Assembly: GCA_903851045.1 (NCBI GenBank)
Contig: CAINNF010000008.1
Coordinates: 299-64,298, forward strand
Direction of reading: 5' to 3'
DNA from: Candidatus Adlerbacteria bacterium
GTDB taxonomy: Bacteria; Patescibacteriota; Minisyncoccia; Phycocordibacterales; SBAW01
Length of the DNA stretch: 64,000 nucleotides
In this document: piece by piece, positions 6,658 to 50,119 of the stretch
Layout of the letters: each line of letters starts with the position of its first letter
Numbering within the stretch: the first letter of the stretch is position 1
Translations under genes and position numbers: made by a program
Notes under the pieces: model-generated
Database searches by the model: none
Seen by the model: the letters and a program-made list of their open reading frames with translations, nothing else
What the model was told of the DNA's origin: nothing

Positions 6658-6872
6658 GCTGGTGTTGGGCGCACAATCATCTCGACCAGATTACTGACAC
6701 CGTGTGGCGCGATAAGCGTAACATCTCCATCACTGGTGGTTACGGCGACGACGGTTGCTGTCTCTGGCCATGTCGAGATAGCATCTGACGAAGAGGCGAA
6801 CGGGGAGGAGCCATTGACGACATGCATCCTCGCTTCGTTTTTGCACGACCGTGCGATATCGAATTGACGAAA

Positions 6873-31090: not shown

Positions 31091-31165
31091 ACACTAGTAT
31101 AACTCCCCCACCGAGTCAAAAGTCGCAGAGTATTGGACACAGACCCTAAGCTGCTCAAAAAGAAG

Positions 31166-31918
31166 TTAGTCGGCAAGCACAAGATTGGTTCCTTTTTTGC
31201 CATCAAGGCGCGACTCCTCAGTCGTCGTTTTTTCGAGCGTGCCGCCTGGCACAATTTTAAAGATTGAGTGTGTTTTCGCTAATTCGTCTACAAGAGGTTT
31301 TGAATCCCACGGATTGTATTCGAACACGATAACTGGCTTTCGCTGGAGCAGTTTCGGCATCCCTTGAAAAACCAGTGTCTCCGCACCTTCGACATCAATC
31401 TTTATAAAATGGATATCCGTCGACTGAAAAAGTTTATCCAGAGTGGTACAGGGCACCACCACCTGCCGCCCTTCGTCTTTGTTCTCCAACAAAGAGTGCA
31501 TCCCCATTTTCCTCGACAGATAGAAGGTAGCGGTCCCGTCCGTATCCGAGACCGCGCTTTGCATAATATGCACATTTGTTAGATGTTTCGTATTTTTTTT
31601 CAACAAACGAAAATTGTTCGCATCCGGCTCAAACGCGTACACATTGCCCGTCGGACCGACCAACGAAGACGCGAGCCGAGTAAAGTATCCAAGGTTAGCA
31701 CCGACATCCACCACGGTCATGCCGCTCGTGATGGTGTTTTTAAAATAGTTCGTCGTATCGATCTCGTATCGATTGCGGAGATGGTTCAGTTTTGTCTGCC
31801 AGGTGCAACTACTGGGGGGGGGAATGAGTATCTCGCCAACCACGCCCACATATCGACCACAAGCACCACAGGCTGCTTGAGAATCTGTCGCACTATCGCT
31901 ACTGAACTCATGGAGCAA
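31166..31918 (-). CDS. FkbM-family methyltransferase
   Basis: Motifs VVDVGANLGYFT...YAFEP...KIDVEGAE. Confidence 0.75.
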   Translation of the reverse strand: MLHEFSSDSATDSQAACGACGRYVGVVGEILIPPPSSCTWQTKLNHLRNRYEIDTTNYFKNTITSGMTVVDVGANLGYFTRLASSLVGPTGNVYAFEPDANNFRLLKKNTKHLTNVHIMQSAVSDTDGTATFYLSRKMGMHSLLENKDEGRQVVVPCTTLDKLFQSTDIHFIKIDVEGAETLVFQGMPKLLQRKPVIVFEYNPWDSKPLVDELAKTHSIFKIVPGGTLEKTTTEESRLDGKKGTNLVLAD

Positions 31919-31979
31919 TCATAAATCCTTTAGGTAAAAAATACTACTCACTACGCACCCCATGTTTTCGAACATATCG

Positions 31980-32975
31980 TTACCAAGTCCTCACACCTCG
32001 ATACATCGGCAGGAGGGTGCCGCCGAAGAGGCGTTTGAAGCGGGCTATCGCTTGTTCTTTTGGGGTGCTGTCTTCGGGTTTTTCTTGCCACCCGATGTCG
32101 TACTGTTCGAAGCCGTTCTGTCGCAGGCGTTGCATGATCTCCCACTGCATCAAGTGGCCGAGCCCGCGGTAGGCGAAGCGGGCGTCGGGTAGGAGCGCCG
32201 ACTGGGCGTAGTAGGCAGACTTCTTGTAGGCGAACACCATCGCACACGACACATACTCTCCGCCGTTGGCTGGTGAGCCGAACACGACGAACGCGTCGCC
32301 CCGGCGCACCAGGTCGAACGTCTTCTCCCAGCGCAGTGGTGCGCCGACCTCCTTCCCTGCCGCCGCGAAGTATATCTTCGTGTACATCTGCGCCAGCTCG
32401 TGCGTGAACGATCGCGAGTCGAAACACGAGATAGCGTACCCGGCCTTTTGGGCAAAATGTACGTCGGAGCGGTGCCCTTTTGCCATCGCAGCAAGAAGTT
32501 CTTTCTCGTCCCTGCGAAGGTCGACACATGTGGTCGTGATGGATGTGTCGTCGAACCCGAATGGCACGAGCGGATTCTCGCGAAGCGATGGCGACGACGC
32601 AGCGAGCGGATCGACGAACATAGTCGCCGCATGGACCTCATTCACTTTCGCGAGCCGAGCGACCTCGTCAAAGATCACCTTGAGAATGTCCGCGCGCTCT
32701 TCGGGAGTCACGTCGTGGGCGAGCGCGGGGTACGGCACCGGCGTCCCACCCATTTTGAACTCGCGTTGTCCCTCTGAACCTTGGCACATGAGCGGCACGA
32801 TCGCGACCAGTGCGCCGTCTCGCATGACACCAAAGGAATAGTCGCGAGCGTGTGGGTCGAGCGTCAGACTCAGTGCCATGAATGCTCGCGTATGTCGCAG
32901 CCACGCATCCGGCGAGGTAGCGCAAAAAGCGTCCCAAGCCGTATCACCGATGTCCTGCTGTGCGAGAATGTTCAT
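31980..32975 (-). CDS. FemAB/GNAT-fold acyl- or aminoacyl-transferase-like protein
   Basis: 331 aa. Its size and two-lobed pattern resemble FemAB-family and PseH-like transferases found in sugar loci. Confidence 0.45.
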   Translation of the reverse strand: MNILAQQDIGDTAWDAFCATSPDAWLRHTRAFMALSLTLDPHARDYSFGVMRDGALVAIVPLMCQGSEGQREFKMGGTPVPYPALAHDVTPEERADILKVIFDEVARLAKVNEVHAATMFVDPLAASSPSLRENPLVPFGFDDTSITTTCVDLRRDEKELLAAMAKGHRSDVHFAQKAGYAISCFDSRSFTHELAQMYTKIYFAAAGKEVGAPLRWEKTFDLVRRGDAFVVFGSPANGGEYVSCAMVFAYKKSAYYAQSALLPDARFAYRGLGHLMQWEIMQRLRQNGFEQYDIGWQEKPEDSTPKEQAIARFKRLFGGTLLPMYRGVRTW

Positions 32976-35713: not shown

Positions 35714-36544
35714 CTAGACGATGTCGCCAATCAGCATGCCGTGGTCACTGCCGGGCGAGAAGTCGAGACGAAAATTCTCGACACTGAACGGATAACCTTT
35801 GGCGCCCGAAAACACCATGATACGGTCCGGTTTGGCGCCGAATTTCGCGGCAGGATGGTGCGGTGCGAGAGTTGTTTGTATCTCTGCGGGCAAAAAGTCG
35901 CGCCCATCCCACTCCTGCAAACTTGCGATCACCTCACCACCTCGATCAGTGTTGGTGTCGGCTGCGAAGACGACGCCACCATGCTGCATGCCTTGGGTGT
36001 GCAAGAATCTCCCAAGAATGCCCGTACTTCTTCTCTGGAGATCCGTATGCACACCACCACGAGTCCAGAACCCGTGGTGAGTCGCGACTCGAATAGTGCG
36101 GCCATCATGAAGCATGACGGTCGCAGCGAGCACCACGCGACTCTCGGTCTCGAGTACGAGCTGGTCAGCCAATTCACTCGGTTCGATGCGCTGGTTGTCG
36201 TTACCGACACCCTGCAAATCTCGCAGGATCCCATCTCCATGGGTGAAACGGAGGGCTCTATCCACCAGCGGGAAGGTTGAGACGATCGCGATCCCCACCG
36301 GCTCACGCCGACCGAAGATGAGATGGTCGGTCATGGGCACAAAAATGGACTGAAACTGCCACAGGTAGCCAAGCACTGAAGCCGGCACGTCCTGGAGACA
36401 CAGGACATGCGCAGGCGGCGAAATAGCACCGCTCCCCACTCCCTTGACCCACGCGAGTGTCGGTGACACGTCGTACGGATCCTTCCCCAAACAACGACCG
36501 AGATTGAGGGTCGCTATACGCACAGGACTCTGTTGACCGAACAC
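35714..36544 (-). CDS. Endonuclease/exonuclease/phosphatase (EEP) family protein
   Basis: 276 aa. IATLNLGRCLG...HVLCLQDV and a C-terminal GSDHG motif. Confidence 0.65.
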   Translation of the reverse strand: MFGQQSPVRIATLNLGRCLGKDPYDVSPTLAWVKGVGSGAISPPAHVLCLQDVPASVLGYLWQFQSIFVPMTDHLIFGRREPVGIAIVSTFPLVDRALRFTHGDGILRDLQGVGNDNQRIEPSELADQLVLETESRVVLAATVMLHDGRTIRVATHHGFWTRGGVHTDLQRRSTGILGRFLHTQGMQHGGVVFAADTNTDRGGEVIASLQEWDGRDFLPAEIQTTLAPHHPAAKFGAKPDRIMVFSGAKGYPFSVENFRLDFSPGSDHGMLIGDIV

Positions 36545-36648: not shown

Positions 36649-36904
36649 TGTTACCGCGGGCGTTGTGTTGTGGTCTTGTCTGTGGGGGCGTCTTCGATCT
36701 GTCGGGGGTGCTCTTTTTCTGGGGGCACGGTCATGAGTACGGTGCTTGGGATCGGCGAGGGTTCGATCGTTATCGTGTGATTTGGTGAGAGGTGCAACTC
36801 TTCGAACGAGAGTTTCGTCGCGAGCGGGGTCTTGCCGAACAGGCGCAGGATAGCGTTGGCGATGTCTATCTTGGTTGGGTAGTACGTCTCGGTCAGGGCG
36901 GTCG
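36649..36904. repeat. Direct repeat copy 1 (about 256 bp, about 97% identical to 46250-46506): displaced 3' end of the E1-beta gene
   Basis: Direct alignment of the two stretches, from gttaccg(c/t)gggcgttgtgttgtggtcttgtctgtgggggcg to ctcggtcagggcggtcg, shows only a handful of substitutions. Confidence 0.85.
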
Positions 36905-36968
36905 GAAATGGGAAATGGGGAGGCGTCCGTTTAATCACGATTTCTTGTGGTCTAATGTTAATCTCCAT
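36651..36968 (-). pseudogene. Truncated 3' fragment of the PDH-E1-beta-like gene. It encodes the last about 85 aa, identical to the C-terminus of 46253..47407, with a new junction-derived N-terminus
   Basis: The translation ...TALTETYYPTKIDIANAILRLFGKTPLATKLSFEELHLSPNHTITIEPSPIPSTVLMTVPPEKEHPRQIEDAPTDKTTTQRPR is identical to the tail of the 384-aa E1-beta ORF. Confidence 0.6.
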
Positions 36969-37050
36969 CCGCTATGCGAATACTGTGCAGCATAGCGGGA
37001 ACCAATTACTACACCACACAATTTTCAAATTAAACGGACGCCTCCCCATT
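36914..37050. repeat. Perfect 22-bp inverted repeat (aatggggaggcgtccgtttaat ... attaaacggacgcctccccatt) flanking an about 93-bp spacer with an internal 9-bp-stem hairpin (ccgctatgc/gcatagcgg). It sits exactly at the left island junction
   Basis: Read directly from the sequence. Also preceded by a tandem ggaaatg ggaaatg. Confidence 0.6.
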
Positions 37051-37103
37051 ATCCGCTTCCTGATTGAAGCTAATATAAAAATAATTTTTAACACTTGATA
37101 TGT

Positions 37104-37574
37104 TTATTGGTTAGAAACTAGATGCTCTGCTTTCTGATCAAGAGTAATTCTAGGATTTAATTGTGTAAGTTCTTTAAGAATTTTAGAGGTTGCTTTATTT
37201 CCATACGCTTCCAAAGTCCCAATTATACTTTCGCGTACCACACCTCTCTCATCAATATAACTAACCCTAATATCTGTGAGCATTCCAACAAATGATTTAC
37301 GAAATTTAACAGATTGAATTTTTGAAGTTTCAATAGTCTTGCTAGAAATCCATTTAATCGCTCTTAATTTGTGATCAAAAATTGTAATACGGGCAAAAGA
37401 TGACAGAACTGGAATAATTAGACAGAGAATAAGCGCAAAGGACATTCCTTTTACCATACTCTCCACCGTAGCTGTCCCGGAAGTTATTCCAAGGAGAAAA
37501 AAGGCAAGAAAGAATACTCCAAATATCGTCCAAATGCCCCTTATTAAACTTGGTTGCGGTTTGTAGGTGTTCAT
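37104..37574 (-). CDS. Small 2-TM membrane protein, candidate immunity protein for the Rhs C-terminal toxin
   Basis: 156 aa. Two N-terminal hydrophobic helices (IWTIFGVFFLAFFLLGI, MSFALILCLIIPVLSSF), then an about 90-aa soluble domain. The start codon is 2 nt downstream of the Rhs stop, and the AT-rich codon usage matches the island. Confidence 0.5.
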   Translation of the reverse strand: MNTYKPQPSLIRGIWTIFGVFFLAFFLLGITSGTATVESMVKGMSFALILCLIIPVLSSFARITIFDHKLRAIKWISSKTIETSKIQSVKFRKSFVGMLTDIRVSYIDERGVVRESIIGTLEAYGNKATSKILKELTQLNPRITLDQKAEHLVSNQ

Positions 37575-37576
37575 GA

Positions 37577-40500
37577 TTATTGTTTCTTAGTTATTATACT
37601 TGGAGTTGAGTTTGCAACACCAAATGGATTGGTCGAAGGTGTAGATGAGAACGATCCGAATGATGTACTTGATTTAGAACTATTTGAAGCAGCCACGGCA
37701 GCAACAAAACCAGTTGCTACCATTTGTGTGCCTACTCCTACAAATTCTTGTGCTCCATTCATGGTAGTGTGTGATCCTGTATAGAACGCAGTGGAGCCAA
37801 AACTTGGAAGCCTTCCTGGGGTACCCGGAACAGTACCCTTTAATACTCCTCCTGTCACTCCAGTCACTACAGATTGATAAGCAAGGGTCCCGTAGTTAGT
37901 CTGCTTATTTGTAATGTAGTTTACTCCAGCAGTGGTAACAAAGTTAGCTGCTCCTGCTGTGACACCAACAGCAACAGCTCCGGCTCCCAATATACCTGCG
38001 GTCGCAGAACTTGCACCAACCACGGCACCCGTCACAGCACTACGTGCATAATCTTGAGGCGAAGAAAGGTTTGAGTAAAAATCACTTGGCCTTAACCCAT
38101 TTTGGTTGATATTGCCTAATACATCGGAACCATATTGGCTAACGCCTCCAGCAACAAATCCTACTCCAGCTGCGATACATATAACTACAGCAGGACCTGC
38201 ACATCTCCCGTTTGGATCTGATTTATTTATTGGATTGTCATTTGCATAGGAATATGAGTTAAGACTTTGAGGATCAGAAAGATTTTGCTGAGTCTCCCAG
38301 AATACCGGGTCTTCGCTAATAAACTGACCGCGAGTTGGCGATTGATATCGGGCCTGCATGTAGTTTAAACCGCTACCCGCGTCATACTCAGTGCCAGCAT
38401 ACTTGCGCTTCTCCCCTTGGTAGGCGCCTGCCTTCGTGTCGAGTCTGGTTTGTCCATACGGATAGTAATCAAGCGTCTCGATGACATTACCCGCACTGTC
38501 AGTAATGATGTTGGAGCCAGTGAGATTGTCGGTCGCGATGTAGCGGACGGTGGTGGTTGCGGTGGTGGTGCCGCCGGTGGTTGATGTAGTAACTAGTGGC
38601 TTGAACGTCGCCATGACTGCGGCCCAGGGTCCGCTGGTTGTGGTGGTGAGTTTGGCTGCTGTTGTTGAAGCGGTGGTTATGGTCGTGTCCTCGGTCGCGA
38701 GTCGCTCGTGGGTGTCGTTGTCGTCTTGGTGTTGGCGCACGGTGTAGCTGGGGGCGGGTGTCCAGGTGTCCCCCGTAGTGGCGCTCCATGCGGCTCCTAC
38801 GTAGAGTTCACTGCCGAGTGTGGTGGTGACATTGCCGGGGTTCGGGTAGCCCGTTGCTCCCGTACTGGACGCTATTTTGTCCAGTGGTGAGGATGTCGCA
38901 ACGCCTGAGTACTCTTGGACTGCAATGGATGCGGCAGTAGCGGAGGTCACGGTGAAGGAGGAGCCTCCCGTGACGTTCTTCGCGTAGTAGAGGGCGACGT
39001 GGTCACCACCGTTGGTGGTGTTCACTGCTTCGTTGATCTTGGTATAGGTGTTGCCCTTGGAGTCGGTGATGTCGTTTGCGGGGAAGGTGGTGCCGAAGAC
39101 TGATACCGCAACAACGACGAGGTCGCCTTGGGTGACAGGGTTGGGGAAAGTGACGGAACCTATGGTGCTATCGATATTCCCTTGGACGAACGTGGGGGTG
39201 GAGGTAGCTGTGGTCGTGCCTCCCCCGCTACTGGTGGCGCTGGTATTCTCAATCGTTGCCAGGTCGAGATCGTTCGCGTAGATGTGCTTGGTGGTGGTGC
39301 CTACTCCCCCGAGTTGGACGTTGTAGAGCGTGTTAGGGGTGATGGTCGTGATGGTGCCTTCGGTGAACTTGATGCGATTGCCTTGGTAGTCGTAGGCGTA
39401 GGTGGAGGTGGCCAGGCCGTTGCCTGACTGGATGAGGCGGTTGTTGTAGTCCCAGGCGTAAGTGTTGGTGCCGTCGCTCAGGAGGTTGCCATTTTGGTCG
39501 TAGGTGAGCGTGGTGGTGGCGGTCGTGGTCGCAGTGCCTCCAGCGGCGGTTGTTGTGGCCGCCCGAAGTGCTACCAGGAGCATCGACCAGTCTTGGCTGG
39601 TTGCGCCAGTGTAAGTGTCGGAGTAAGTGCTGGTGGTGGTTGCTACCTGGTAGCTGGCGGCACCGAATATCGAGCCAGTGAGGTCTTTGTAGAGCGAAGT
39701 GCGACTGGTCGTCGCGTCGACCGTCGAGTAACGTGAAAGCGTGGCGGTCACGAGGTCTCCACCGGTAACATTGGAGAGACTGATGGTCGGGTTGCCGCTA
39801 AGGCCGGTCGCAGATGCGACCTTTTCGATCGGTGATACGGTGGCCACACCGCTGAAGGATGCGACCGCGAGCTTAAAGCCGTCGGTAGCACCCGTTACCG
39901 TCACCGACACCGTCTTAGAGCCAGTCGTTGTGGCGACAAGATACCACACCTCCGACGCTATGCCGACCATGCGAGTAGAGGTCGCTTTGGTGAACGACGC
40001 GCCGTTCCATGTGGCAGAGGTGATGGTGCCAGTGCCTCCGACATCCTGCCAGATGTCTGCATACAGGACGAGCATACTACTACTGGTCGCCACAGTCTGT
40101 GTCCACGTCTTGGTGACCGGGCCAGCGTTGTAGCCAGCGTTCGTACTGGTCGACGTAGCACCCCACACAACAGTCGAGGTCGAGACACCACCCGCCATGG
40201 TCGAGGTCGAGAAGGTCGTGAGCGCAGTCACCGCATCTGGATTCGCATAGTTGGAGCCTGTGTTGCCCGTGTAGAGATAACTACCCAAAGGGCCGCTGGT
40301 GATATTGCCCAGCGAGTCATAAGTGTAGGTTTGGTTGAAGGCTCCATTTCCAACAATAGCAGTCGATGCAGATAGAAGACGATTAAGACCATCGTAGGTA
40401 TACACAACCATTTGACCGTTCGCCAGGTCAGAGTTGTCGGTACGAGAAATGATATTACCATTTGGATCATAGACGTAATGTAGATCCTGCGTCTTTGTAT

Positions 40501-43500
40501 AATGGGTACTCGTCGCGAACGTGTTCGTTACCGTGAATGTACCGCCCATGGTATACGTGCAGATAGTATCAACACCGGAGGTGGAGGCTGTCCCGCCACA
40601 AGTATAGTCAGCGGCGTTCGCCGTAGGATATCGAATGATGACGATGCCAGACCCGCCCACGCCGCCAGGCCCATTATTCGGACTTCCGCCACCTCCGCCA
40701 CTACCGGTATTCGGAGTCCCCGCACCTCCACTGTAACTTCCACTTCCGTTGCCACCGCCTCCCACACCGCCTGTGCCTCCCACGAGCCCTCCGCCGCCTC
40801 CACCACCTCCCGCATAATATGTTGCTATACCTGTAATACTACTCTGTATACCAGTACCACCATTTGCACCATATCCACTCACGGTTGCATTATTGCCGCT
40901 TGAGCCTGCCCCTCCGCCACCGCCCGAGGCATTACCAACCCCGGTACTTGCACCACCGGAATTCCCTTCCCCATTGACAGAACTTCCTCCTACTCCACCC
41001 GTTATATACCCTGTTCCAGCTCCGCCACCAGACCCTCCGCTTCCACCAGGAAGTGAGTGACCGTACCCGTCTGTTGCGCTGCCATATCCTCCGCCAGCCG
41101 CAGAGACCAGAATGCCGATAGAGCTCGTAGCTCCTTGCGAGCCATTACCAGAAACCGTCGCGGGTCCTCCGGCTCCGCCGCTTCCGACCGTCACCGTATA
41201 GGCTCCAGGCGGGATACTTATCGAAGAACTGCTTATGACCCCGCCAGCACCTCCACCTCCGCCACCATTACCGTTATTTGCACCTGAGCCACCGCCACCA
41301 CCTGCAACCACGAGAATTTGTACTGGGTTATTCTGTGCGATCGTTGTTGTTGCAGCCGCGTATGACAGCTTTGCTGTCAAGCGATACAACTGGGTAGGAT
41401 CGTACGTGTATGTTGTAGTAGCACCAGACCCAGTGATCACTTGTGTATATTGACCTGTCGGAATATATCCAGAGTACATCGCAAGTATTTTAGACGACCC
41501 GCCGTTCTCTTTTTCCCATACTGAATCAAGTAATCCTGCGCTATTAAAATTGTATTGCGCTTGAGCACTATCTGGATAGATTATAAGCGTCTGATTACCT
41601 TGGCGATCATATGAGTACTGTGTAACGAACGTTGTGCTCGTACCCACGACAGACTCGGACTCACCACTCTTGAGTCCAATCGGATTGTAGGTATATGCAA
41701 TTCTCGATGCGGTAGTGCTCGCAACACACAGTTGCCCGATACCGTTCATACACGAGTCGTAGGTATAGGTGACTTCTGTACCCGCTTGCCCTGTGTAGTC
41801 TTCAGTCAGTGAACGGTTGAGCGCATCGTAGGTGAAGTTTACCGTCTGGCTTTTCGGGTCCACTCGTTGTATGAGATTGCCGGCGGTGTCGTAGGAGTAC
41901 GACCAACTCCCAAATGTCCCATCACCCACCATATGAAGGTCTTCGGCCGTGAGTCTTCGATTGAGGCCGTCATATGTGAAATTGCGTACGTTCCCATTAG
42001 CGTCCGTGACCTTGGTAAGGTTGTTGTTAAGATCATAGATATACGTGATGGTTGCAGACGACGTGGCAGTACTATGTTCGACCACGGTGACTAAGTTACT
42101 GAACGCGTCGTTCGACAAATCTTTTACATTCCCGTTCGCATCAGTTATCACGGTGTGCCACGGCAGGTACGCATAGCCAGTCGTGCCGACCGCATTGACC
42201 GCAGTACTTACTCTCTGGAGCGAGTCATATGTATAGGTGGTGAGGAGCGAACTACTTGCCGTCGGCGACGTGTACGCGGTACTTGAGGCGAAATATGGCA
42301 ACGACTCTTTCGACAGGAGCGAGGCGGTGTTGTACACCGTATCCTTGACCACGTAGGTATTGTTCCCTGGCGCTTGAGTCCTCGTCTGTATCGTGCGCCC
42401 AAGCCCATCAAAATATTCATACGCCGTGGTACTACTTGCCGAAGACAAACGGTTCGTGGTGAGCGTGTATGACGGGAATGTGTTGTCCGTGTACGCGATG
42501 TCGGTCTTCACTACCAATGTGCTTGATGAAGTTTGGTCTGGCTGTTTGACCTGCACCAGACGCCCCACGGGATCATACACGTTCACATTCGTGAGGCCAT
42601 TTGGGTCTGTCGTTGTTGCGACCTTCCCGCTCGCGTAGTCGTAGTACACCTGCGAAGTCTGATTGAGTGCGTTCGTTGTCGACGCTGGGTAGTAGTTGAG
42701 AGCATCATACACATACTTCGTCAGATTACCGAGCGCATCAGTCGTCGTACCCACGAGCCCAAAGCTGTTGTACGCTCTGGTGGTACTCGCGTACGAGCTA
42801 CCCGATATCCAATTCTTTTCTTGGGTACGATTACCCGCACCTACTGATCCAAAAGAGAGGTTGTCGTAGAGATACTGCGTTTCCATTATTTTTGTACTAC
42901 CCACGTCCGTAAGAGTTATATCGTCGATCACATCCAGCGTTGTGCTGGCATTCGTCGCATACGTTATGTTTTTGATTACTGTATCACTCCCTACGTCCGA
43001 ATAGGTACCGTCCGAACTTCCCGACACCTCTCCCCGGTCGATCGACTGTGTCAAATCGCCCGTCGTGGTGGAATACGTATACTCGACCGCATGATCTTTG
43101 TGAGAGGAGCCCGAGCTATCAAATTCCTGGGTCATGTGTTTCGATAGGTACACGAATGAGCGACCGTTCCCTTCGTCAGTTGTATCCCATCGACTGAAAA
43201 TACGCTTCAGAAGAGTTCCGTCTGTCTTCTTGGTGTCTTGGCGAAAAACGTGCCCAATCTGTGGGTACCCGTCAGCCTGTTCACCGTCGCCAGCGGAAAC
43301 ACTATCACCCTGGTCATAATACGTGGTCAAGAGATAGTCTGGATGTGTTTCGGTGATTGTGTAAAAACCAGCAAATTTACGGTCCTGCGGAGCAGCGACA
43401 TTGAGATACAGCTTACCGCCACTGTAAGCATAATCCGTTTCTGTACTGTTTCCATCATTATCGTTGGTAACGATTTTCGACACCAACAGAAGTGACATGG

Positions 43501-44524
43501 GCATGTGCGAATTCGTGCCTGTTTGTGGTGATGGGACATATGACACCTGCGTATTGCCACCCTTGGGATAGGTAATTTGAGTAAGAACGTCTTGGCGGGT
43601 GGTATTGTTCCTTATATTTTCATTATCTGGTATCCCATCACCATCCCAATCGACATACTCGTTATTTCTTTCTGTGTCATATTGATCGTATATAGTCGCA
43701 TACGTGGGAAGCGCTATGGTACTTGTAGCCCAGCCTGAACCGGTATTTAACAAGACCAAATTAAATCCATTTGAAATTTCGGCATTTCCGTGTGTGTTTC
43801 CAGCAATGGGGCTATAGTATGAGCGAACAAAATCCGGCAATCCATCACCGTTAACATCCATAAACCGCATGCCTCGATCAAAAAACTGATGACTCCCTGT
43901 GTTGTAGTAATAGGTTGACGTTGCAAGATTCCAAACTGAAGAGCAGGTGCCTCCTCTTCCGACCCACCCTGTACCATTATTCAGACAAAAATAGGTATTG
44001 TTATTGTCCGAATACACCCAATCATCTAGACCGTCACTATTTACATCTATGAGTTGAGAGTTAGAAATAGGTCCATTAATGTCAGGCATGGGCATAACTG
44101 TCGGGAACAGGTCACTTGTTCTCCAACCACTTCCATTCCCTAAATAGGTACCGTCATAACCCTCTTCGTAAATATTTGATGCGTAGTCTACATATCCATC
44201 TCCATTGAAGTTTCCTAGGAGGCCAGCAGTAAGTGTGGCATATGCTCCTGGAAAATATACCGCCACAGGAGGTATGTTCAAGGTCGAAGTCGCAACGGAA
44301 GTGAACGTATACGCACCTGTTGTGCTTCCTGTGCTGTAATATAAAGTGGCACCATCGTGATTAACGTAACTATGCAAAACGTCGGCATATCCATCCCCAT
44401 TAACATCTATAAATCTTGTACCACTTTCATAAGCAGTTGTAGGATTACCAAAACATGCCAGGAATATGATGGGGGTGGAGTAACGCCGACACCATCTATA
44501 CCAAACGCAGGAGACCCGCCGCAC
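37577..44524 (-). CDS. Rhs/YD-repeat polymorphic toxin (TcB/TcC- or WapA-like), C-terminal portion of a gene split by a frameshift. FG-GAP/VCBS-like repeats, glycine-rich insert, YD repeats, Rhs core, glycine-zipper C-terminal toxin domain
   Basis: 2315 aa. Motifs FIDVNGDGYADVL, IDVNSDGLDDWVY, FMDVNGDGLPDFVR. Dozens of YD repeats (YTYDALNRSLTE, YVYDPNGNIISRTD, YAYDYQGNRI...). Rhs core YYPYGQTRLD...RYQSPTRGQFISEDP...DPNGR. About 208-aa hydrophobic Gly/Ala-rich C-terminus. Confidence 0.9.
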   Translation of the reverse strand: MRRVSCVWYRWCRRYSTPIIFLACFGNPTTAYESGTRFIDVNGDGYADVLHSYVNHDGATLYYSTGSTTGAYTFTSVATSTLNIPPVAVYFPGAYATLTAGLLGNFNGDGYVDYASNIYEEGYDGTYLGNGSGWRTSDLFPTVMPMPDINGPISNSQLIDVNSDGLDDWVYSDNNNTYFCLNNGTGWVGRGGTCSSVWNLATSTYYYNTGSHQFFDRGMRFMDVNGDGLPDFVRSYYSPIAGNTHGNAEISNGFNLVLLNTGSGWATSTIALPTYATIYDQYDTERNNEYVDWDGDGIPDNENIRNNTTRQDVLTQITYPKGGNTQVSYVPSPQTGTNSHMPMSLLLVSKIVTNDNDGNSTETDYAYSGGKLYLNVAAPQDRKFAGFYTITETHPDYLLTTYYDQGDSVSAGDGEQADGYPQIGHVFRQDTKKTDGTLLKRIFSRWDTTDEGNGRSFVYLSKHMTQEFDSSGSSHKDHAVEYTYSTTTGDLTQSIDRGEVSGSSDGTYSDVGSDTVIKNITYATNASTTLDVIDDITLTDVGSTKIMETQYLYDNLSFGSVGAGNRTQEKNWISGSSYASTTRAYNSFGLVGTTTDALGNLTKYVYDALNYYPASTTNALNQTSQVYYDYASGKVATTTDPNGLTNVNVYDPVGRLVQVKQPDQTSSSTLVVKTDIAYTDNTFPSYTLTTNRLSSASSTTAYEYFDGLGRTIQTRTQAPGNNTYVVKDTVYNTASLLSKESLPYFASSTAYTSPTASSSLLTTYTYDSLQRVSTAVNAVGTTGYAYLPWHTVITDANGNVKDLSNDAFSNLVTVVEHSTATSSATITYIYDLNNNLTKVTDANGNVRNFTYDGLNRRLTAEDLHMVGDGTFGSWSYSYDTAGNLIQRVDPKSQTVNFTYDALNRSLTEDYTGQAGTEVTYTYDSCMNGIGQLCVASTTASRIAYTYNPIGLKSGESESVVGTSTTFVTQYSYDRQGNQTLIIYPDSAQAQYNFNSAGLLDSVWEKENGGSSKILAMYSGYIPTGQYTQVITGSGATTTYTYDPTQLYRLTAKLSYAAATTTIAQNNPVQILVVAGGGGGSGANNGNGGGGGGAGGVISSSSISIPPGAYTVTVGSGGAGGPATVSGNGSQGATSSIGILVSAAGGGYGSATDGYGHSLPGGSGGSGGGAGTGYITGGVGGSSVNGEGNSGGASTGVGNASGGGGGAGSSGNNATVSGYGANGGTGIQSSITGIATYYAGGGGGGGGLVGGTGGVGGGGNGSGSYSGGAGTPNTGSGGGGGSPNNGPGGVGGSGIVIIRYPTANAADYTCGGTASTSGVDTICTYTMGGTFTVTNTFATSTHYTKTQDLHYVYDPNGNIISRTDNSDLANGQMVVYTYDGLNRLLSASTAIVGNGAFNQTYTYDSLGNITSGPLGSYLYTGNTGSNYANPDAVTALTTFSTSTMAGGVSTSTVVWGATSTSTNAGYNAGPVTKTWTQTVATSSSMLVLYADIWQDVGGTGTITSATWNGASFTKATSTRMVGIASEVWYLVATTTGSKTVSVTVTGATDGFKLAVASFSGVATVSPIEKVASATGLSGNPTISLSNVTGGDLVTATLSRYSTVDATTSRTSLYKDLTGSIFGAASYQVATTTSTYSDTYTGATSQDWSMLLVALRAATTTAAGGTATTTATTTLTYDQNGNLLSDGTNTYAWDYNNRLIQSGNGLATSTYAYDYQGNRIKFTEGTITTITPNTLYNVQLGGVGTTTKHIYANDLDLATIENTSATSSGGGTTTATSTPTFVQGNIDSTIGSVTFPNPVTQGDLVVVAVSVFGTTFPANDITDSKGNTYTKINEAVNTTNGGDHVALYYAKNVTGGSSFTVTSATAASIAVQEYSGVATSSPLDKIASSTGATGYPNPGNVTTTLGSELYVGAAWSATTGDTWTPAPSYTVRQHQDDNDTHERLATEDTTITTASTTAAKLTTTTSGPWAAVMATFKPLVTTSTTGGTTTATTTVRYIATDNLTGSNIITDSAGNVIETLDYYPYGQTRLDTKAGAYQGEKRKYAGTEYDAGSGLNYMQARYQSPTRGQFISEDPVFWETQQNLSDPQSLNSYSYANDNPINKSDPNGRCAGPAVVICIAAGVGFVAGGVSQYGSDVLGNINQNGLRPSDFYSNLSSPQDYARSAVTGAVVGASSATAGILGAGAVAVGVTAGAANFVTTAGVNYITNKQTNYGTLAYQSVVTGVTGGVLKGTVPGTPGRLPSFGSTAFYTGSHTTMNGAQEFVGVGTQMVATGFVAAVAASNSSKSSTSFGSFSSTPSTNPFGVANSTPSIITKKQ

Positions 44525-45900
44525 GAAACAGAACCTGATATGGCGGTATCGTTTATACCATCCCCATTAGCGTCAGCGGAGACATTTGCTTGGTCGGCAT
44601 GATGACCAAAACCATTCACATTTGACCACGTAACTGACGTACTTGCATACTGAAAAGTCATTGCTGGTAAAGTGAGTTGGGTACCGTCGATGTTTTGACC
44701 GGTTTCCTGCACGCTTGATAAAAGTGAGCGATGATTATTATTCCCTACCGAGTATGAGAGAGCATACTTTCGAACAACATGACCGTTCATCTGAGCATCG
44801 ATCTCAGACACGCGACTATCGGTTATCACTTGAAAACCGTATTTGTAGCTTGCATACGGAACACTACTAGAAGCAAGCGAAAAACTTACACTCATCACAC
44901 CATCTGTCGAACCATGTCCTGTATATAAAATTTGTGAGGGAAATATCTGATTATTCTCCTTGGTATAGCTATATTTTATGTAATTATCGTTTACGTCTCT
45001 TACTTCTTCGAGATACCAACGCGATATGGCGGTCGAACTGGCAACGTCAAATTGTCGTGACTGCGTGGTGGTGCCATACTCGTAGCGGGTGCCATTCTTG
45101 TCATATGCGGTCCACGTATTATTTGAACAGACATATTTAACAAAACTTCCATCATCCACTCGAGCGTAATACACGCCAGGTGTCGATGTTGAAGTTGAGC
45201 TTGCAAGTTCCCCATTTATAGACGAACTAAAATAGGTGTCCGTAAAGAGTTGGTCCGATCCAATTTTATTTATTCTTTCGATGTACGGGATCGAGAGAGA
45301 CCACCCATACCCCACGATACTGTTGTCGTCCAAGTTTTGACTATTGTAGTTCAGAGACAAACTTGGCTGCATACCATTACGCCCCGGTGGGATATCCAAA
45401 GGTACCCCTTGTGTTAGAGCACCTGAAGCTGTATCTACTTTGGGTGATATGGTTTGGTATGTAAAAAGTGATGGATTAGATACGGTGGGTTGCCCATTCG
45501 TTCCCAAGGTCATTGGACTTAAGCTACTTTTTGTGTTTGTCTTACCGTTCGAGTCTTCTGTTGCGGTCGAATCAGACAAAGAAGAATTTTGAACATCAGG
45601 AGTGAGTGCTGTATTCGTATCACTCGTTGTGTCTGAAGAATTAGAGTCAGATTGTGAGGCTATACCTTGCACCGCACCTCCTGTAAATGAGCCTCCCATA
45701 TCCGATGGAGGGGTTGCGTCTGCGGCAGGTGGTGTTGGGTCGGGTATGATCGATGCGTCGGCCGCAGGCGGACTTACCACATCATCCGCAAACACAGGAG
45801 CGAGTGGCGTTACAAAAAACGTAAGAACCAGCAAAAACGCGACAACCTTTCTAAAGATGTTACAGCTTGTCGACCCAACAGCGAATGTCAGTGAATACAT
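44407..45900 (-). CDS. N-terminal portion of the same Rhs toxin gene: signal peptide plus SpvB/TcdB N-terminal domain. Joined to 37577..44524 by a 1-nt frameshift at a G5/C5 run (44471-44475)
   Basis: 497 aa. Signal peptide MYSLTF...VLTFFVTPLAPVFADDVV. SpvB-domain hallmark LSLNYNSQNLDDNSIVGYGWSLSIPYIERI. The ORF overlaps the next one by 118 nt in another frame. The upstream frame becomes nonsense after the poly-C tract and the downstream frame is nonsense before it. Confidence 0.8.
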   Translation of the reverse strand: MYSLTFAVGSTSCNIFRKVVAFLLVLTFFVTPLAPVFADDVVSPPAADASIIPDPTPPAADATPPSDMGGSFTGGAVQGIASQSDSNSSDTTSDTNTALTPDVQNSSLSDSTATEDSNGKTNTKSSLSPMTLGTNGQPTVSNPSLFTYQTISPKVDTASGALTQGVPLDIPPGRNGMQPSLSLNYNSQNLDDNSIVGYGWSLSIPYIERINKIGSDQLFTDTYFSSSINGELASSTSTSTPGVYYARVDDGSFVKYVCSNNTWTAYDKNGTRYEYGTTTQSRQFDVASSTAISRWYLEEVRDVNDNYIKYSYTKENNQIFPSQILYTGHGSTDGVMSVSFSLASSSVPYASYKYGFQVITDSRVSEIDAQMNGHVVRKYALSYSVGNNNHRSLLSSVQETGQNIDGTQLTLPAMTFQYASTSVTWSNVNGFGHHADQANVSADANGDGINDTAISGSVSCGGSPAFGIDGVGVTPPPSYSWHVLVILQLLMKVVQDL

Positions 45901-46249
45901 AAAAATAAAAAATTAGTGTCGCACCTCTACGCAAATAAACTGGGCTAACTATAAAGCACAAAATATTTTTGCAAATAAAAATTAGACGTAGGAGAAAAAT
46001 ATGCTACTTGTAAAAAATCTTCTCTTCCCGAGAAACCTTTATAAATGAATTATCGCTTATCCGAGATACTTTTGGAAAGCTCAACGTGATCAAGGCTATT
46101 TTAAAAATACACAAAATGCGAATTGGAAAAATATTTTGTCAAACAAACCAAAAAGTTATCAACAGGTACATAATCCATCTCTCTTACAGTTAATGGAGAA
46201 GACTTGGCAAACTACCACCTGTACCAAAGGTACCCTTAGCGATCCATCC

Positions 46250-46506
46250 TTGTTACCGTGGGCGTTGTGTTGTGGTCTTGTCTGTGGGGGCGTCTTCGAT
46301 CTGTCGGGGGTGCTCTTTTTCTGGGGGCACGGTCATGAGTACGGTGCTTGGGATCGGCGAGGGTTCGATCGTTATCGTGTGGTTCGGCGAGAGGTGCAAC
46401 TCTTCGAACGAGAGTTTCGTCGCGAGCGGGGTCTTGCCGAACAGGCGCAGGATAGCGTTGGCGATGTCTATCTTGGTTGGGTAGTACGTCTCGGTCAGGG
46501 CGGTCG
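46250..46506. repeat. Direct repeat copy 2 (intact 3' end of the E1-beta gene), marking the right island boundary
   Basis: See copy 1 at 36649-36904. Confidence 0.85.
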
Positions 46507-47407
46507 AGGTGGGGCACGGGACGTCGGGGCACGACAGCGACACGGGGCGGGCCTTCAGTGTGATGTTGTGGTGCTGTGCCACGCGCGCGATGATCTCTGC
46601 GCCGACGCTGAACGCGCGGTGCGTCGTATCGACCGTGATGAGTCTGCCGGTCTTCTTCACCGACGCGAACACGGTCTCGTAGTCTATCGGGTTGATACTC
46701 ACGAGGTCGATGATCTCTACACCCGCGTGCGTGCCGATCAGCTCGCGCGCCTGGAGCGTCGCAACGAGTCCGTCGCCGTAGGTCACCACCGTGACCATGT
46801 CTCCCGTGACGACCACGCGTGCCTCATCGAGCGGCACCGTGTACGACTCCTCGGGCACCGCCTGTTTGGTCCCGTACAGCCAACGAGGTTCGAGCATGAC
46901 GACCGGGTTGTTGTCCGCGATAGCGGACGCGAGCAGACCTTTCGCCAGGTAGGGTGTCGACGGGATGACGACCTTCAGTCCTGGCACACTGCCAAAGAGC
47001 GCGTGGAGCGCCTGTGTGTGTTGCGGCCCATTCCCCCACTGCCGACCAAGGGCGATACGAAAGACGATCGGTACCGGGTTGCCGCCGCCGAACATGTAGT
47101 TCCACTTCGCCGCCTGGGTAAAGATAGGATCGTACGCGAGCATCGCGAACTCGACGCGGCCATGGTGCACGATCGGTCGCAGTCCGTTGATGGCGGCACC
47201 CACCGCCATGCCCGTGAACGCGTTCTCCGAGACCGGCACGTCGAGTATGCGGTCGGGATATTTTACCTTCAGCCCCGCGGTCGTCCCATCCGCGCCGTTG
47301 GGGTAGGAGACGCCAAGGCCGATGACGAAGACCGACTGGTCCTTCTCCATCGCCTGGTCGGTCGCCTCTTTCAGCGCTTCGGTGTATTTGATGATTCGCT
47401 CAGGCAT
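46253..47407 (-). CDS. 2-oxoacid (pyruvate/acetoin) dehydrogenase E1 component beta subunit (transketolase-like) with Pro/Thr-rich about 60-aa C-terminal tail
   Basis: 384 aa. Motifs VFVIGLGV...DVPVSENAFTGMAVGAAINGLRPIV...VVMLEPRWLYG. The tail SPNHTITIEPSPIPSTVLMTVPPEKEHPRQIEDAPTDKTTTQRPR is not part of a canonical E1 beta. Confidence 0.85.
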   Translation of the reverse strand: MPERIIKYTEALKEATDQAMEKDQSVFVIGLGVSYPNGADGTTAGLKVKYPDRILDVPVSENAFTGMAVGAAINGLRPIVHHGRVEFAMLAYDPIFTQAAKWNYMFGGGNPVPIVFRIALGRQWGNGPQHTQALHALFGSVPGLKVVIPSTPYLAKGLLASAIADNNPVVMLEPRWLYGTKQAVPEESYTVPLDEARVVVTGDMVTVVTYGDGLVATLQARELIGTHAGVEIIDLVSINPIDYETVFASVKKTGRLITVDTTHRAFSVGAEIIARVAQHHNITLKARPVSLSCPDVPCPTSTALTETYYPTKIDIANAILRLFGKTPLATKLSFEELHLSPNHTITIEPSPIPSTVLMTVPPEKEHPRQIEDAPTDKTTTQRPR

Positions 47408-49391
47408 AGACGTGTGTGGTTAGTTCTTGTTCGTTCGGGTATGCGGCTTTCTGTGCATCGTCGATAGCTGCGAGCACCTGGGCGCGCACGTCAGTGTCGA
47501 TCTGTGCGAGCGTCTCTTCGGTAACACCTTGGGTAAGGAGCGTCTGTCGCAAACGCTTGATACTATCGTTCTTCGATCGAACTTCGGGCGTATCCTCTTC
47601 GCGATACCCCTGTGCATCATCGAACAGCGGGGCGCTGTGCGCCATGTGTCGGTACGTCATGCACTCCAGGACCGCGGGGGTCTTGGTCTTTCGGATCGAC
47701 GCGACCAGCTCCTTCGCCTTCGCGAGCACGTCCTCGTAGTCGTTGCCGTCCGCTTTCTTGTACTGGACGCCGAACCCCGTCACGATGTGTTCGACATCAT
47801 ACTTGGGAGAGCGACGATCCTTGAGTTTGGAGTTGACCGAATAGAGATTGTTCTCGACCACCAGCAAGAGTGGGAGTTTGAACAGTGCGGACAGATTGAG
47901 CGTCTCGTACACGCCGCCCTCCTCCGACGCCCCGTCGCCGACGAACGCGACCGAGATCCCGCGCTGGTGGTTGTACGCTTGCGCGAACGCAGACCCTGCC
48001 GCGAGCGGGACGGCACTCCCGAGTATCGGCGTCGACCCGACGAAATTGACCGACTTGTCTATCATATGCATCGAGCCACCTTTGCCGTGTGCCACACCCC
48101 CTTCCTTGCCGATCATCTCGCGCACCATGGCGCGCAGGTCGCCGCCTTTGGCGAGATAATGTCCGTGCGAACGGTGGTTGCCCATCACCTTGTCCTGCGG
48201 CTGGAGCGCATCGCACACGCCGGTCGCGACCGCCTCTTGTCCCACATAAAAATGTACGAAGCTCATGATCTTGTGCTTGAGGTACAGCTGCGCGATCTCC
48301 TCTTCGGCGGCGCGCATGTAACTCATCTTGGTGTACGCGCGCAGGAGCGGCGATGGCTGCAGGTCGATGAGGATACGGCTCGCCTCGCCCTTGCGCACCA
48401 GGTCGATCGCCTCGTTGATCTTGTGGATCGGGACACGGTGCGTGATGAGATTGTCGATATTGAGCAACCCGCTTTGGTAGAGCTTGATGTAGCGCGGGAT
48501 CTCGATGCTCGGCGAGAATTGTCCGCCTTGCGTCGCCTTGATCATCTTGCCACTGCCGCCAAAGAAGTGGTTCGCGTTCTTCAGCTCCACCGTCTCGCCG
48601 GGCTTGGGTTGGCCGACCATGATGAAGCGTCCTGTGCCAGAGAGAAGTTGGAGCGTCTCTTCGATGCTGCGCGGACTCCCCGAGGTGTCGATGATGACAT
48701 CCACTTCTTTTATGCCGAACGCCTTATGGAGAGCCTCTTTGATCGACTCGTGCTTACCGTTTATATACAGGTCCGCGCCGAGCTGCTCGGCGACCGCCTT
48801 CTTACTATCATGGATATCGACGCTGATGATGGGGTACGCGCTCACCATCTTCGCCGCTTTGATGAGGTTGACCCCAAGCCCGCCTGCGCCGACGATCATG
48901 ATCCCTTCCCCCATCTTGAGATTCGCCTCCAAGTTCACGGTGCCAAGCGCGGTCGAGAGACTGCATCCCAAGAGCGCGCACAACTCCTCCGGTGTATCCT
49001 GCGGGACGGGCGTGATGCGGTTCTCCGACACGATGGAATATTCGCTGAACGTGGTGACCTTGCCGCTTTTGATGACTTTGCCGTTGAAGATGTAGGACGG
49101 AAAATCGGATTCGATACCATCCCCTTTGCGCCAATGCATGACGACCTTATCGCCCTTTTTTACCTTCGTCACGCCAGCACCGATATCCTCGACGATACCG
49201 CACCCTTCGTGACCCATGAGATGCGGGAGGAACGCCGCGTTGCCTTTGTGGCCACCGATCTCTTGGAGCTGCGAACCGCAGATGCCGCTCACCAACACCT
49301 TCACCAATACCTGACCGAACAAGAGCTCCGTCAGACCAACATCCGCGACCGTGAGCGGCGCATTGATAGCTTCGAGGACAGCGGCTTTCAT
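47400..49391 (-). CDS. Fusion protein: N-terminal Zn-dependent medium-chain alcohol dehydrogenase plus C-terminal TPP-dependent 2-oxoacid dehydrogenase E1 alpha subunit
   Basis: ADH half has MKAAVLEA...GICGSQL...HLMGHEGCGIVEDIG and GAGGLGV. E1-alpha half has YVGQEAVATGV...HRSHGHYLAKGGD...GSMHM...GDGASEEGGVYETLNLSAL...LLVVENNLYS. Continuous frame with no internal stop. Overlaps the E1-beta gene by 8 nt. The start is set at the internal MKAAVL. Confidence 0.8.
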   Translation of the reverse strand: MKAAVLEAINAPLTVADVGLTELLFGQVLVKVLVSGICGSQLQEIGGHKGNAAFLPHLMGHEGCGIVEDIGAGVTKVKKGDKVVMHWRKGDGIESDFPSYIFNGKVIKSGKVTTFSEYSIVSENRITPVPQDTPEELCALLGCSLSTALGTVNLEANLKMGEGIMIVGAGGLGVNLIKAAKMVSAYPIISVDIHDSKKAVAEQLGADLYINGKHESIKEALHKAFGIKEVDVIIDTSGSPRSIEETLQLLSGTGRFIMVGQPKPGETVELKNANHFFGGSGKMIKATQGGQFSPSIEIPRYIKLYQSGLLNIDNLITHRVPIHKINEAIDLVRKGEASRILIDLQPSPLLRAYTKMSYMRAAEEEIAQLYLKHKIMSFVHFYVGQEAVATGVCDALQPQDKVMGNHRSHGHYLAKGGDLRAMVREMIGKEGGVAHGKGGSMHMIDKSVNFVGSTPILGSAVPLAAGSAFAQAYNHQRGISVAFVGDGASEEGGVYETLNLSALFKLPLLLVVENNLYSVNSKLKDRRSPKYDVEHIVTGFGVQYKKADGNDYEDVLAKAKELVASIRKTKTPAVLECMTYRHMAHSAPLFDDAQGYREEDTPEVRSKNDSIKRLRQTLLTQGVTEETLAQIDTDVRAQVLAAIDDAQKAAYPNEQELTTHVYA

Positions 49392-49420
49392 TGGCTTGAA
49401 GTATAGTGTAAAACTAATCA

Positions 49421-50119
49421 ATGTCCAGCATCGTCGTGTACCACCCTGTCGGTCTAGGTGACCACCTCGCATGCAGCGGTATCGTGCGCACGTACGCCAC
49501 CACCCACGACCGGGTCGGGGTCTTTTGCCTAGAGCAGAACTACCCGTCGGTCTCCGCTCTCTACCGCGACCTACCGAACGTGACCGTGCTGCGCGTGCGG
49601 TCGCACCGGGACATACAGCGCTTCCGCTTGCGCAACGCGATGCATCTCACCCGCAATCATTACGACCGGGTACTCAACGTGCGGGTGCTCGACGAAGAGT
49701 CCGGTATCCAATACGAAAAGCAATTGTATCGATCCGCGAACGTACCGATCGAGAACCTATGGGACAAATTCTTGCTCCAACGAGACGCCGCGGCGGAGCG
49801 AGCACTGATGGAGAAGCTGCATGCACCCGGCGCATACCAGTTCATCCACGAAGACGCGCGCTTCCCGCTGACACCGACCAAATTGTCGAACCTCCCCGCA
49901 CTGCGACCGGACCTCGCGCTGACGAAGAACATCTTCGACTACTGCTCGGTCATCGAGTGCGCCCAGGAGATCAACGTCATGGACTCGTCGTTCATGTTCC
50001 TCGTCGATTGTCTCGACTACACTGCGCCGAACCAGAAGCGATTCATACACCGCTACGCTCGACCGAACATGCCGTGGAACCTGCCCCTCCTACGCAAGCA
50101 ATGGACCATACTCACCTAA
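49421..50119 (+). CDS. Hypothetical protein (possibly glycosyltransferase-related)
   Basis: 232-aa ORF with plausible codon usage. No confident family. Confidence 0.35.
   Translation: MSSIVVYHPVGLGDHLACSGIVRTYATTHDRVGVFCLEQNYPSVSALYRDLPNVTVLRVRSHRDIQRFRLRNAMHLTRNHYDRVLNVRVLDEESGIQYEKQLYRSANVPIENLWDKFLLQRDAAAERALMEKLHAPGAYQFIHEDARFPLTPTKLSNLPALRPDLALTKNIFDYCSVIECAQEINVMDSSFMFLVDCLDYTAPNQKRFIHRYARPNMPWNLPLLRKQWTILT

Follow-up and report, generated by a model that had tools for sequence, protein, structure and literature searches.

The stretch of DNA analysed here, called the window throughout, spans 64,000 nucleotides (nt) of contig CAINNF010000008.1 (positions 299 to 64,298) from the Candidatus Adlerbacteria assembly GCA_903851045.1. 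It carries an SpvB-Rhs island that lies between two nearly identical copies of the 3' end of a gene for an E1-beta-like subunit of a thiamine pyrophosphate (TPP) enzyme. The island is a real and recent insertion or loss, and it has no recombinase gene of its own. An attachment-site-like (att-like) duplication arising from integration at a gene 3' end, as proposed in an initial annotation made from the sequence, is supported in its topology, but not as to the enzyme responsible. The two junctions and the genes that flank them, with lengths of open reading frames (ORFs) and genes in amino acids (aa), are as follows.

35714-36544, minus strand: a 276-aa gene, the native downstream neighbour of E1-beta, from which it is separated by 106 nt in the empty-site contig L069
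36572-36599, minus strand: a promoter-like site for the 276-aa gene (TTGACA-16-TATCTT, with TG), undamaged by the insertion
36649-36904, minus strand: the distal (orphan) repeat copy, R, with the same sequence as the single copy of the empty-site allele
36904-37060, no strand: a 157-nt imperfect hairpin with 51-nt arms and an inner hairpin, whose foot touches R
46251-46506, minus strand: the proximal repeat copy, R', running from the last 2 nt of codon 301 to the E1-beta stop codon plus 2 nt, and used by the intact gene
46253-47407, minus strand: the target gene, encoding the E1-beta-like TPP-enzyme subunit of 384 aa (Pfam Transket_pyr and Transketolase_C)

Pairwise MAFFT alignment, a repeat search and self-BLAST of the whole window (E = 5e-125) define a direct repeat of 256 nt, at 36649-36904 and 46251-46506. 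The two copies share 252 of 256 bases (98.4%, 4 mismatches). Their starts lie 9,602 nt apart, and 9,346 nt separate one copy from the other. The recurrence of about 250 nt of the E1-beta 3' end some 9.3 kb away, noted in the initial annotation, is therefore confirmed by alignment, at an identity somewhat above the 97% or so estimated there; nor is the similarity short or of low complexity, which was feared as a possible refutation. Self-BLAST finds no other long direct repeat in the window; apart from this one, only an unrelated inverted pair of 289 nt, at 61-63 kb, reaches E < 1e-3.

R' comprises the last 83 codons and the stop codon of the E1-beta gene (residues 302-384) and completes its reading frame, and R encodes these 83 residues too, as part of a 105-aa ORF that exists by chance (36651-36968). 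The arrangement is thus the one first described, with an intact gene on the island-side copy and an orphan 3' end at the far junction. All four differences between the copies are synonymous third-position changes, at repeat positions 119, 122, 125 and 248. The start of the repeat falls within the Transketolase_C domain (Pfam match 195-313), 44 residues before the Pro/Thr-rich tail, so the claim that precisely this tail is duplicated does not stand. Among E1-beta relatives conservation extends to about residue 345, and only the last 39 or so residues form a lineage-specific tail. At its other end the repeat stops 2 nt past the stop codon, so that what the island brings is exactly a substitute 3' end.

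Three metagenome contigs, found by exact-protein look-ups and then aligned to the window, show the locus with and without the island.

L067 (ERZ27229610 k141_294264): island present; identical to the window over 21 kb
L068 (ERZ18630235): island present; 3 single-nucleotide polymorphisms (SNPs) relative to the window in 21,155 nt
L069 (ERZ27313170, 8,996 nt): island absent; 4 repeat SNPs relative to the window in 7,024 nt, and a further 2,228 nt 100% identical

In L069, E1-beta with a single repeat copy is followed by the same 106-nt spacer and the 276-aa gene, with no scar; an empty, attB-like allele is thus present in the population. The proximal junction is recovered in further assemblies and in Logan contigs of other runs (L074-L076), and the distal junction in contigs of other runs (L091-L093). 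The island is a genuine indel polymorphism.

E1-beta relatives all come from metagenome-assembled genomes of Parcubacteria/Patescibacteria. The Parcubacteria ones are 60-75% identical, and the best is a truncated Candidatus Adlerbacteria contig at 93%; the host is a population of uncultured, ultra-small Parcubacteria of the Candidate Phyla Radiation (CPR). In five distant relatives (L023, L025, L026, L027, L046) a homologue of the 276-aa gene lies directly after E1-beta, which suggests that the empty order is ancestral and the low-GC island a gain. Island-free alleles, named in the initial annotation as a check on the insertion, therefore exist at both levels: in the population, with flanks identical apart from the 4 repeat SNPs, and in the gene order of these relatives. 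Across 66 related E1-beta loci (1.2 Mb; one genome per species, the closest, L052, being truncated), none has a second E1-beta 3' end. Two apparent cases were rejected: the tail duplication in L050 is a scaffold-gap artefact adjoining a run of N, and the second 3'-end match in L027, which has no stop codon after it, probably reflects tandem paralogues.

The repeat brackets a discrete island of 9,346 bp whose composition is foreign, with a GC content of 0.49 against 0.58 in the flanks. Its genes are arranged as follows, reading away from E1-beta.

45901-46250, minus strand: an AT-rich island leader of 350 nt between R' and the SpvB gene, GC about 0.44-0.47, with promoter-like sites
44407-45900, minus strand: an SpvB (TcB N-terminal) domain protein of 497 aa, or 421 aa according to some gene callers, Pfam PF03534
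37577-44524, minus strand: an Rhs/YD-repeat polymorphic toxin, ORF of 2,315 aa, Pfam FG-GAP_3, DUF6443, RHS_repeat and Gly_rich_2
37580-38206, minus strand: its putative C-terminal toxin domain of 209 aa, after the DPNG motif, Gly/Ala-rich and hydrophobic
37104-37574, minus strand: an ORF for a 156-aa predicted membrane protein, the putative immunity protein, starting 3 nt after the rhs stop codon

The leader holds three sigma-70-like matches, compared with 0.8 expected by chance, and the closest non-identical SpvB homologues reach no more than 59% identity. The SpvB ORF has 118 nt (44407-44524) in common with the longest Rhs ORF. The Rhs start has been called at 44266 or 43861, so that the TcB-like part is split in two genes whose true starts are uncertain; the start at 44266, giving 2,229 aa, is the probable one. 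The Rhs core terminates in ...NKSDPNG (YANDNPINKSDPNG), a DPxG motif, and the 209-aa domain follows, so the hallmark of Rhs systems (a shell of YD/RHS repeats, a DPxG core end and a variable C-terminal toxin) is present in the island. Neither this domain nor the 156-aa protein has a Pfam match, and their toxin and immunity functions are presumptive. Being Gly/Ala-rich and hydrophobic, the C-terminal domain is probably membrane-active, and the membrane protein is probably its immunity protein, judging only by its position after the toxin gene. GC content falls to 0.41 across the segment of C-terminal toxin domain, immunity gene and hairpin, compared with 0.56 in the Rhs core.

A closer look at the four variable positions separates two kinds of change inside the repeat. 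At position 248 (window 46259) both haplotypes with the island have A in their proximal copy, and both distal copies and the empty site have G; this A follows the island and so constitutes one island-linked difference, 9 nt from the junction. Positions 119, 122 and 125 (46388, 46385 and 46382) read G, G and C in the proximal copy of the window only. These three synonymous SNPs at 3-nt spacing, which turn TCA CCA AAT into TCG CCG AAC, are the sole differences between the window and L068 in 21 kb, and the cluster resembles a short tract of gene conversion whose source was a diverged, functional E1-beta allele. Since it is private to the proximal copy of the window population, recombination acts inside the repeat. 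In L068 the two copies differ at just 1 of 256 positions.

The hairpin at the distal junction (-82.5 kcal/mol, z = -7.5) contains a conserved motif of about 45 nt with the core ATGGGGAGGCGTCCGTTT, and each of its arms holds AAACGGACGCCTCCCCATT, so that the motif is present as two inverted copies. An exact 21-mer scan of metagenome contigs finds the motif in a single other contig, L077; there an MNT-HepT gene lies between two direct copies of the motif (38 nt, 87%), as it does in L081, which is longer. The copies lie at 188-225 and 1235-1272 in L077, at 1324-1361 and 2371-2408 in L081, and at 256-273 and 1298-1315 in L083. The last of these contigs carries the same MNT-HepT gene (100% protein identity) in another upstream context, and its similarity to L081 starts exactly at the motif, so the motif coincides, in these alignments, with a point at which a mobile cassette recombined. 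The L077 copies alone show no folding, the membrane proteins that precede the motif show no homology to one another, and the motif is absent both from the viral contigs scanned and from 1.2 Mb of other CPR loci. Rfam has no family for the repeat, the hairpin or the motif, returning only sub-threshold miRNA noise.

Tracing the hairpin motif also led to two CPR-like loci with the same layout as the window, three in all, by a route that is biased. In L081 a stretch of 72-78 nt at the very end of the gap gene for glyceraldehyde-3-phosphate dehydrogenase (GAPDH) is duplicated 3.6 kb downstream at about 82% identity (681-758 and 4270-4347), the duplicated C-terminal sequence being WYDNEMGYTYTLIDHVIKAGKLI with its stop codon. 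These repeats bracket a 3.5-kb island of membrane-protein, MNT-HepT and two Fic genes that holds no integrase. In L084 (also L085) the last 19 codons and the stop codon of guaA, 60 nt in total, are duplicated 973 nt away at 93% identity (3555-3614 and 4528-4587); this repeat starts exactly at the guaA stop codon and brackets a 913-nt cassette with MNT-HepT as its only content, again with no integrase. A related cassette (82% nucleotide identity) lies in the same guaA-purH gap of L088 with no duplication, and polarising the guaA repeat SNPs against this outgroup gives an ambiguous result. Of the two loci, it is the gap locus that the motif links to the window island.

Synonymous and non-synonymous codon differences between copies number 4:0 in the window, 4:0 at guaA and 7:3 at gap. 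The total of 15:3 is far from the neutral expectation for these codon comparisons, and at least in L081 each copy belonged to a functional gene, in a lineage of its own, while the two diverged. The architecture thus gives a hint that duplicated gene 3' ends recur with defence and toxin cassettes.

Homologous SpvB-Rhs clusters show other contexts. In L079 (3261-19181), in the setting of a mobile element, an SpvB/FG-GAP/Rhs cluster at 52% identity adjoins a large serine recombinase (Resolvase, Recombinase and Zn_ribbon_recom domains, apparently frameshifted), along with a TrwB-like protein, IstB and ParE. A Kaiserbacteria contig (L038, 1-7020) has an SpvB/Rhs locus at 41-51% identity upstream of the same operon of alcohol dehydrogenase (ADH)-E1-alpha and E1-beta, and within it an orphan C-terminal module of the classic form, with a 189-nt repeat (4686-4874 and 6615-6803, 83%). 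A donor search among these close island relatives, L078-L080 and L038, finds neither a flanking gene-end duplication nor the motif in their contexts.

Direct repeats around the insert, together with a scarless one-copy empty site, indicate a single crossover with a circle that carried the target segment, and this Campbell-type topology is very probable whatever the enzyme. In such an event, one reciprocal crossover between the chromosomal E1-beta 3' end and the same 3' end on a circular island would turn E1-beta into a hybrid whose final part is the island-side copy, with the original 3' end displaced 9.3 kb downstream as an orphan. E1-beta would stay intact because the gene now ends in the copy brought by the island, and the same repeats would allow precise loss of the island. 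The direction of the event (gain), the circular intermediate and the kind of recombinase are the parts of this scheme that we infer. We tentatively favour, at a little under even chances, a mobile SpvB-Rhs toxin/immunity island that entered by Campbell-type integration at the E1-beta 3' end through a recombinase acting in trans. The island could then be a decayed or satellite element that retains att sites only, in the manner of a cis-mobilizable element (CIME). Arguments for a replacement 3' end that is site-specific by design are the end of the repeat at 2 nt past the stop, the hairpin at the other junction, the two analogous loci with their mainly synonymous differences, and the serine recombinase beside the homologous cluster of L079. 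The island-linked A at position 248 and the breakpoint motif at the distal junction count in favour of the account as well.

Several observations weigh against a trans-acting recombinase and this history. Pfam finds no recombinase or transposase either inside the island or among the ORFs of at least 110 aa scanned elsewhere in the window, to which a further scan contributed 28; within this range the earlier statement that no integrase survives holds. No cognate integrase element is seen at E1-beta in the 66 related loci, though these loci were not scanned for integrases, and the three analogous islands (window, L081, L084) share no terminal sequences. A contig with the circular junction was searched for among contigs through the orphan ORF, and none was found. 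The empty site of L069 could be a secondary precise deletion between the repeats, since the SNP pattern fits both histories. With L068 copies that differ at one position, an element-borne 3' end is indistinguishable from a fresh copy of the host's own. All data, moreover, are metagenome assemblies.

Host homologous recombination could generate the same topology, if RecA joined a conspecific circular or concatemeric fragment bearing the 256-bp 3' end to the chromosome by a single crossover, with no site-specific recombinase involved; loss could take the same route. This is a possible but less probable account, and the trans-acting recombinase ranks slightly above such RecA-type insertion-duplication. 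Its substrate would be 256 nt at 98.4-99.6% identity, which suits homologous recombination equally well; the initial annotation's reading of site-specific integration into a gene 3' end therefore survives as to topology and not as to site-specificity. Recombination by RecA also fits the lack of a recombinase in the ORFs scanned across the 64-kb window, the unshared ends of the three islands, the fact that E1-beta is no recurrent target in the 66 loci, and the private three-SNP cluster, which shows recombination or gene conversion inside the repeat. An integrase-less island of Escherichia coli that is mobile through its direct repeats has been documented (PMC5426353). This account gives no reason for the repeat to end at the stop codon, in the window as in the two analogous loci. 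The analogue repeats, only 60-78 nt at 82-93% identity, would be poor substrates for RecA, which probably needs more length and closer identity, and a prior event would be needed to place the gene 3' end on the island.

A duplication formed de novo at insertion, whether as a very long target-site duplication from staggered breaks or through homology-facilitated illegitimate recombination or a template switch where the hairpin has its foot, would mean that the island never carried a gene end. The near-identity of the L068 copies and a distal junction exactly at the base of a strong hairpin agree with this, and homology-facilitated illegitimate recombination has been proposed for displacement of Rhs and type VI secretion effectors (PMC5361080). 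Against it, terminal inverted repeats are lacking and the ORFs scanned include no transposase; the mainly synonymous differences between copies at the three loci are unlike neutral drift after copying from a single template. Homology-facilitated illegitimate recombination replaces recipient DNA with foreign DNA, and we know of no case in which it, or a transposase duplication, yields clean duplications of 60-256 nt. Duplication de novo is accordingly improbable.

An assembly artefact, in which an episome or another genome was threaded in through the 256-bp segment or the empty contig was mis-threaded, is very improbable: contigs do break inside the repeat in several assemblies (L071, L072, L074-L076) and short k-mers cannot phase copies of the L068 type, which differ only 9 nt from the repeat end, but both junctions are recovered across independent samples and assemblers, the flanks match relatives in composition and synteny, and the repeat SNPs break the identity of the copies into stretches of 118 and 122 nt, shorter than k = 141 (a value taken from the contig name k141), so that the integrated path would have been phased in the assembly of the window.

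Other classes of element were considered and set aside. The window has no tRNA or tmRNA target. A transposon or insertion sequence is excluded by the lack of a transposase, by an inverted repeat at one end only and by a duplication as long as 256 nt. As for an integron cassette, attC hairpins carry R''(RYYYAAC)...R'(GTTRRRY) boxes at their base, and the GTTTAAT...ATTAAAC of the island is in the reverse order of attC boxes and lies about 20 nt inside the stem; there is no IntI. Rhs-core displacement does not apply, the repeat being E1-beta sequence with no internal rhs-core repeat downstream. An integrase-encoding element of the e14/icd type would share the flanking repeats and the empty allele, but no recombinase gene lies inside the island.

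The target gene itself has a conserved partner. At 47400-49472, on the minus strand, lies a Zn-ADH/E1-alpha fusion gene (Pfam ADH_N, ADH_zinc_N and E1_dh) upstream of E1-beta, which it also adjoins in relatives; fusion or adjacency of ADH and E1-alpha is conserved across Parcubacteria. The E1 pair (46253-49472) lies inside a surface-glycan cluster of about 20000-64000 with glycosyltransferases, methyltransferases, NeuB, a CTP-transferase, a Wzy_C ligase and GtrA, and it is probably a sugar-modifying TPP enzyme, not a pyruvate or 2-oxoacid dehydrogenase. With the exception of SecA and MurB, the surroundings of the island belong to this biosynthetic cluster. The inverted repeat mentioned above (289 nt, 69.5% identity, 61015-61301 and 62888-63174) is shared by two divergently overlapping paralogues of GT47 (exostosin-like) glycosyltransferases at 60970-63243. 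Outside the island, a second low-GC patch at 31000-32000 of the window (0.48, about 0.60 around it) may be another foreign insert.

Occupied and empty alleles with identical flanks, four repeat SNPs apart, provide a population-level example of gene gain or loss in the CPR, and a complete Rhs/Tc-like toxin and immunity locus as the insert bears on how episymbionts compete or attack hosts. If the gap and guaA architecture reflects one mechanism, defence and toxin cassettes would be moved with no recombinase encoded in cis, and an orphan copy of the last codons of a conserved gene would serve as a metagenome signature for such islands. A bolder proposal is that cassettes of conflict genes (Rhs toxins, MNT-HepT, Fic) that lack an integrase form a class in the CPR (Patescibacteria), each cassette carrying a functional E1-beta, gap or guaA 3' end that replaces the resident end up to the stop codon, with an unrecognised trans-acting recombinase or a homology-addressed mechanism behind them and the motif of about 45 nt as the junction site. 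This we consider unlikely.

The repeat is indeed protein-coding, as the initial annotation stressed, but this is no anomaly, since the 3' ends of icd (for e14) and of fda, rpsI and rpmG (for integrative and conjugative elements and CIMEs) are already known sites. At icd of E. coli, the cryptic prophage e14 (like phage 21) supplies a replacement 3' end and leaves the 3' pseudogene icdC, and excision of e14 is SOS-inducible and site-specific, recombining the two icd copies (PMC13626634). The island resembles e14 in lying where a protein-coding metabolic gene ends, in the replacement 3' end, in the orphan at the far junction and the mainly conservative or synonymous differences between copies. 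Its lack of a recombinase sets it apart from e14, which encodes its own integrase and excisionase, as do a longer and nearly identical repeat, a CPR host and an Rhs toxin cargo.

Streptococcal CIMEs are cargo islands of 1.2-13 kb with att direct repeats at fda, rpsI and rpmG 3' ends and no recombination or transfer genes (PMC7563491). The island likewise keeps att-like repeats and has no recombination, mobilisation or conjugation genes. CIMEs are defined, however, by descent from, and mobilisation by, a cognate integrative and conjugative or integrative and mobilizable element that uses the same att site. The 66 related E1-beta loci revealed no integrase-bearing element of this sort, which leaves membership in the class unestablished. 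The streptococcal att repeats are also much shorter than 256 nt.

With C-terminal displacement of Rhs and type VI secretion effectors (PMC5361080) the island shares an Rhs toxin, a low-GC C-terminal toxin/immunity module and a displaced 3' end that persists as an orphan, but here the duplicated end belongs to a neighbouring metabolic gene and the whole rhs locus is the insert. The microcin H47 island of E. coli is bounded by direct repeats and has no site-specific recombinase of its own, yet it excises independently of RecA by a mechanism given as unknown (PMC5426353). The two islands are alike in being small, bounded by direct repeats and devoid of their own site-specific recombinase, and they differ in host lineage.

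The mobile-element biology of the CPR is, to our knowledge, almost unexplored, and a literature search found no such elements described in the phylum. The closest mechanistic precedent is e14, with phage 21, at icd, and CIMEs are the closest structural class. An integrase-less island at the 3' end of a protein gene is thus of a known kind, and what is new is its occurrence in the CPR phylum.

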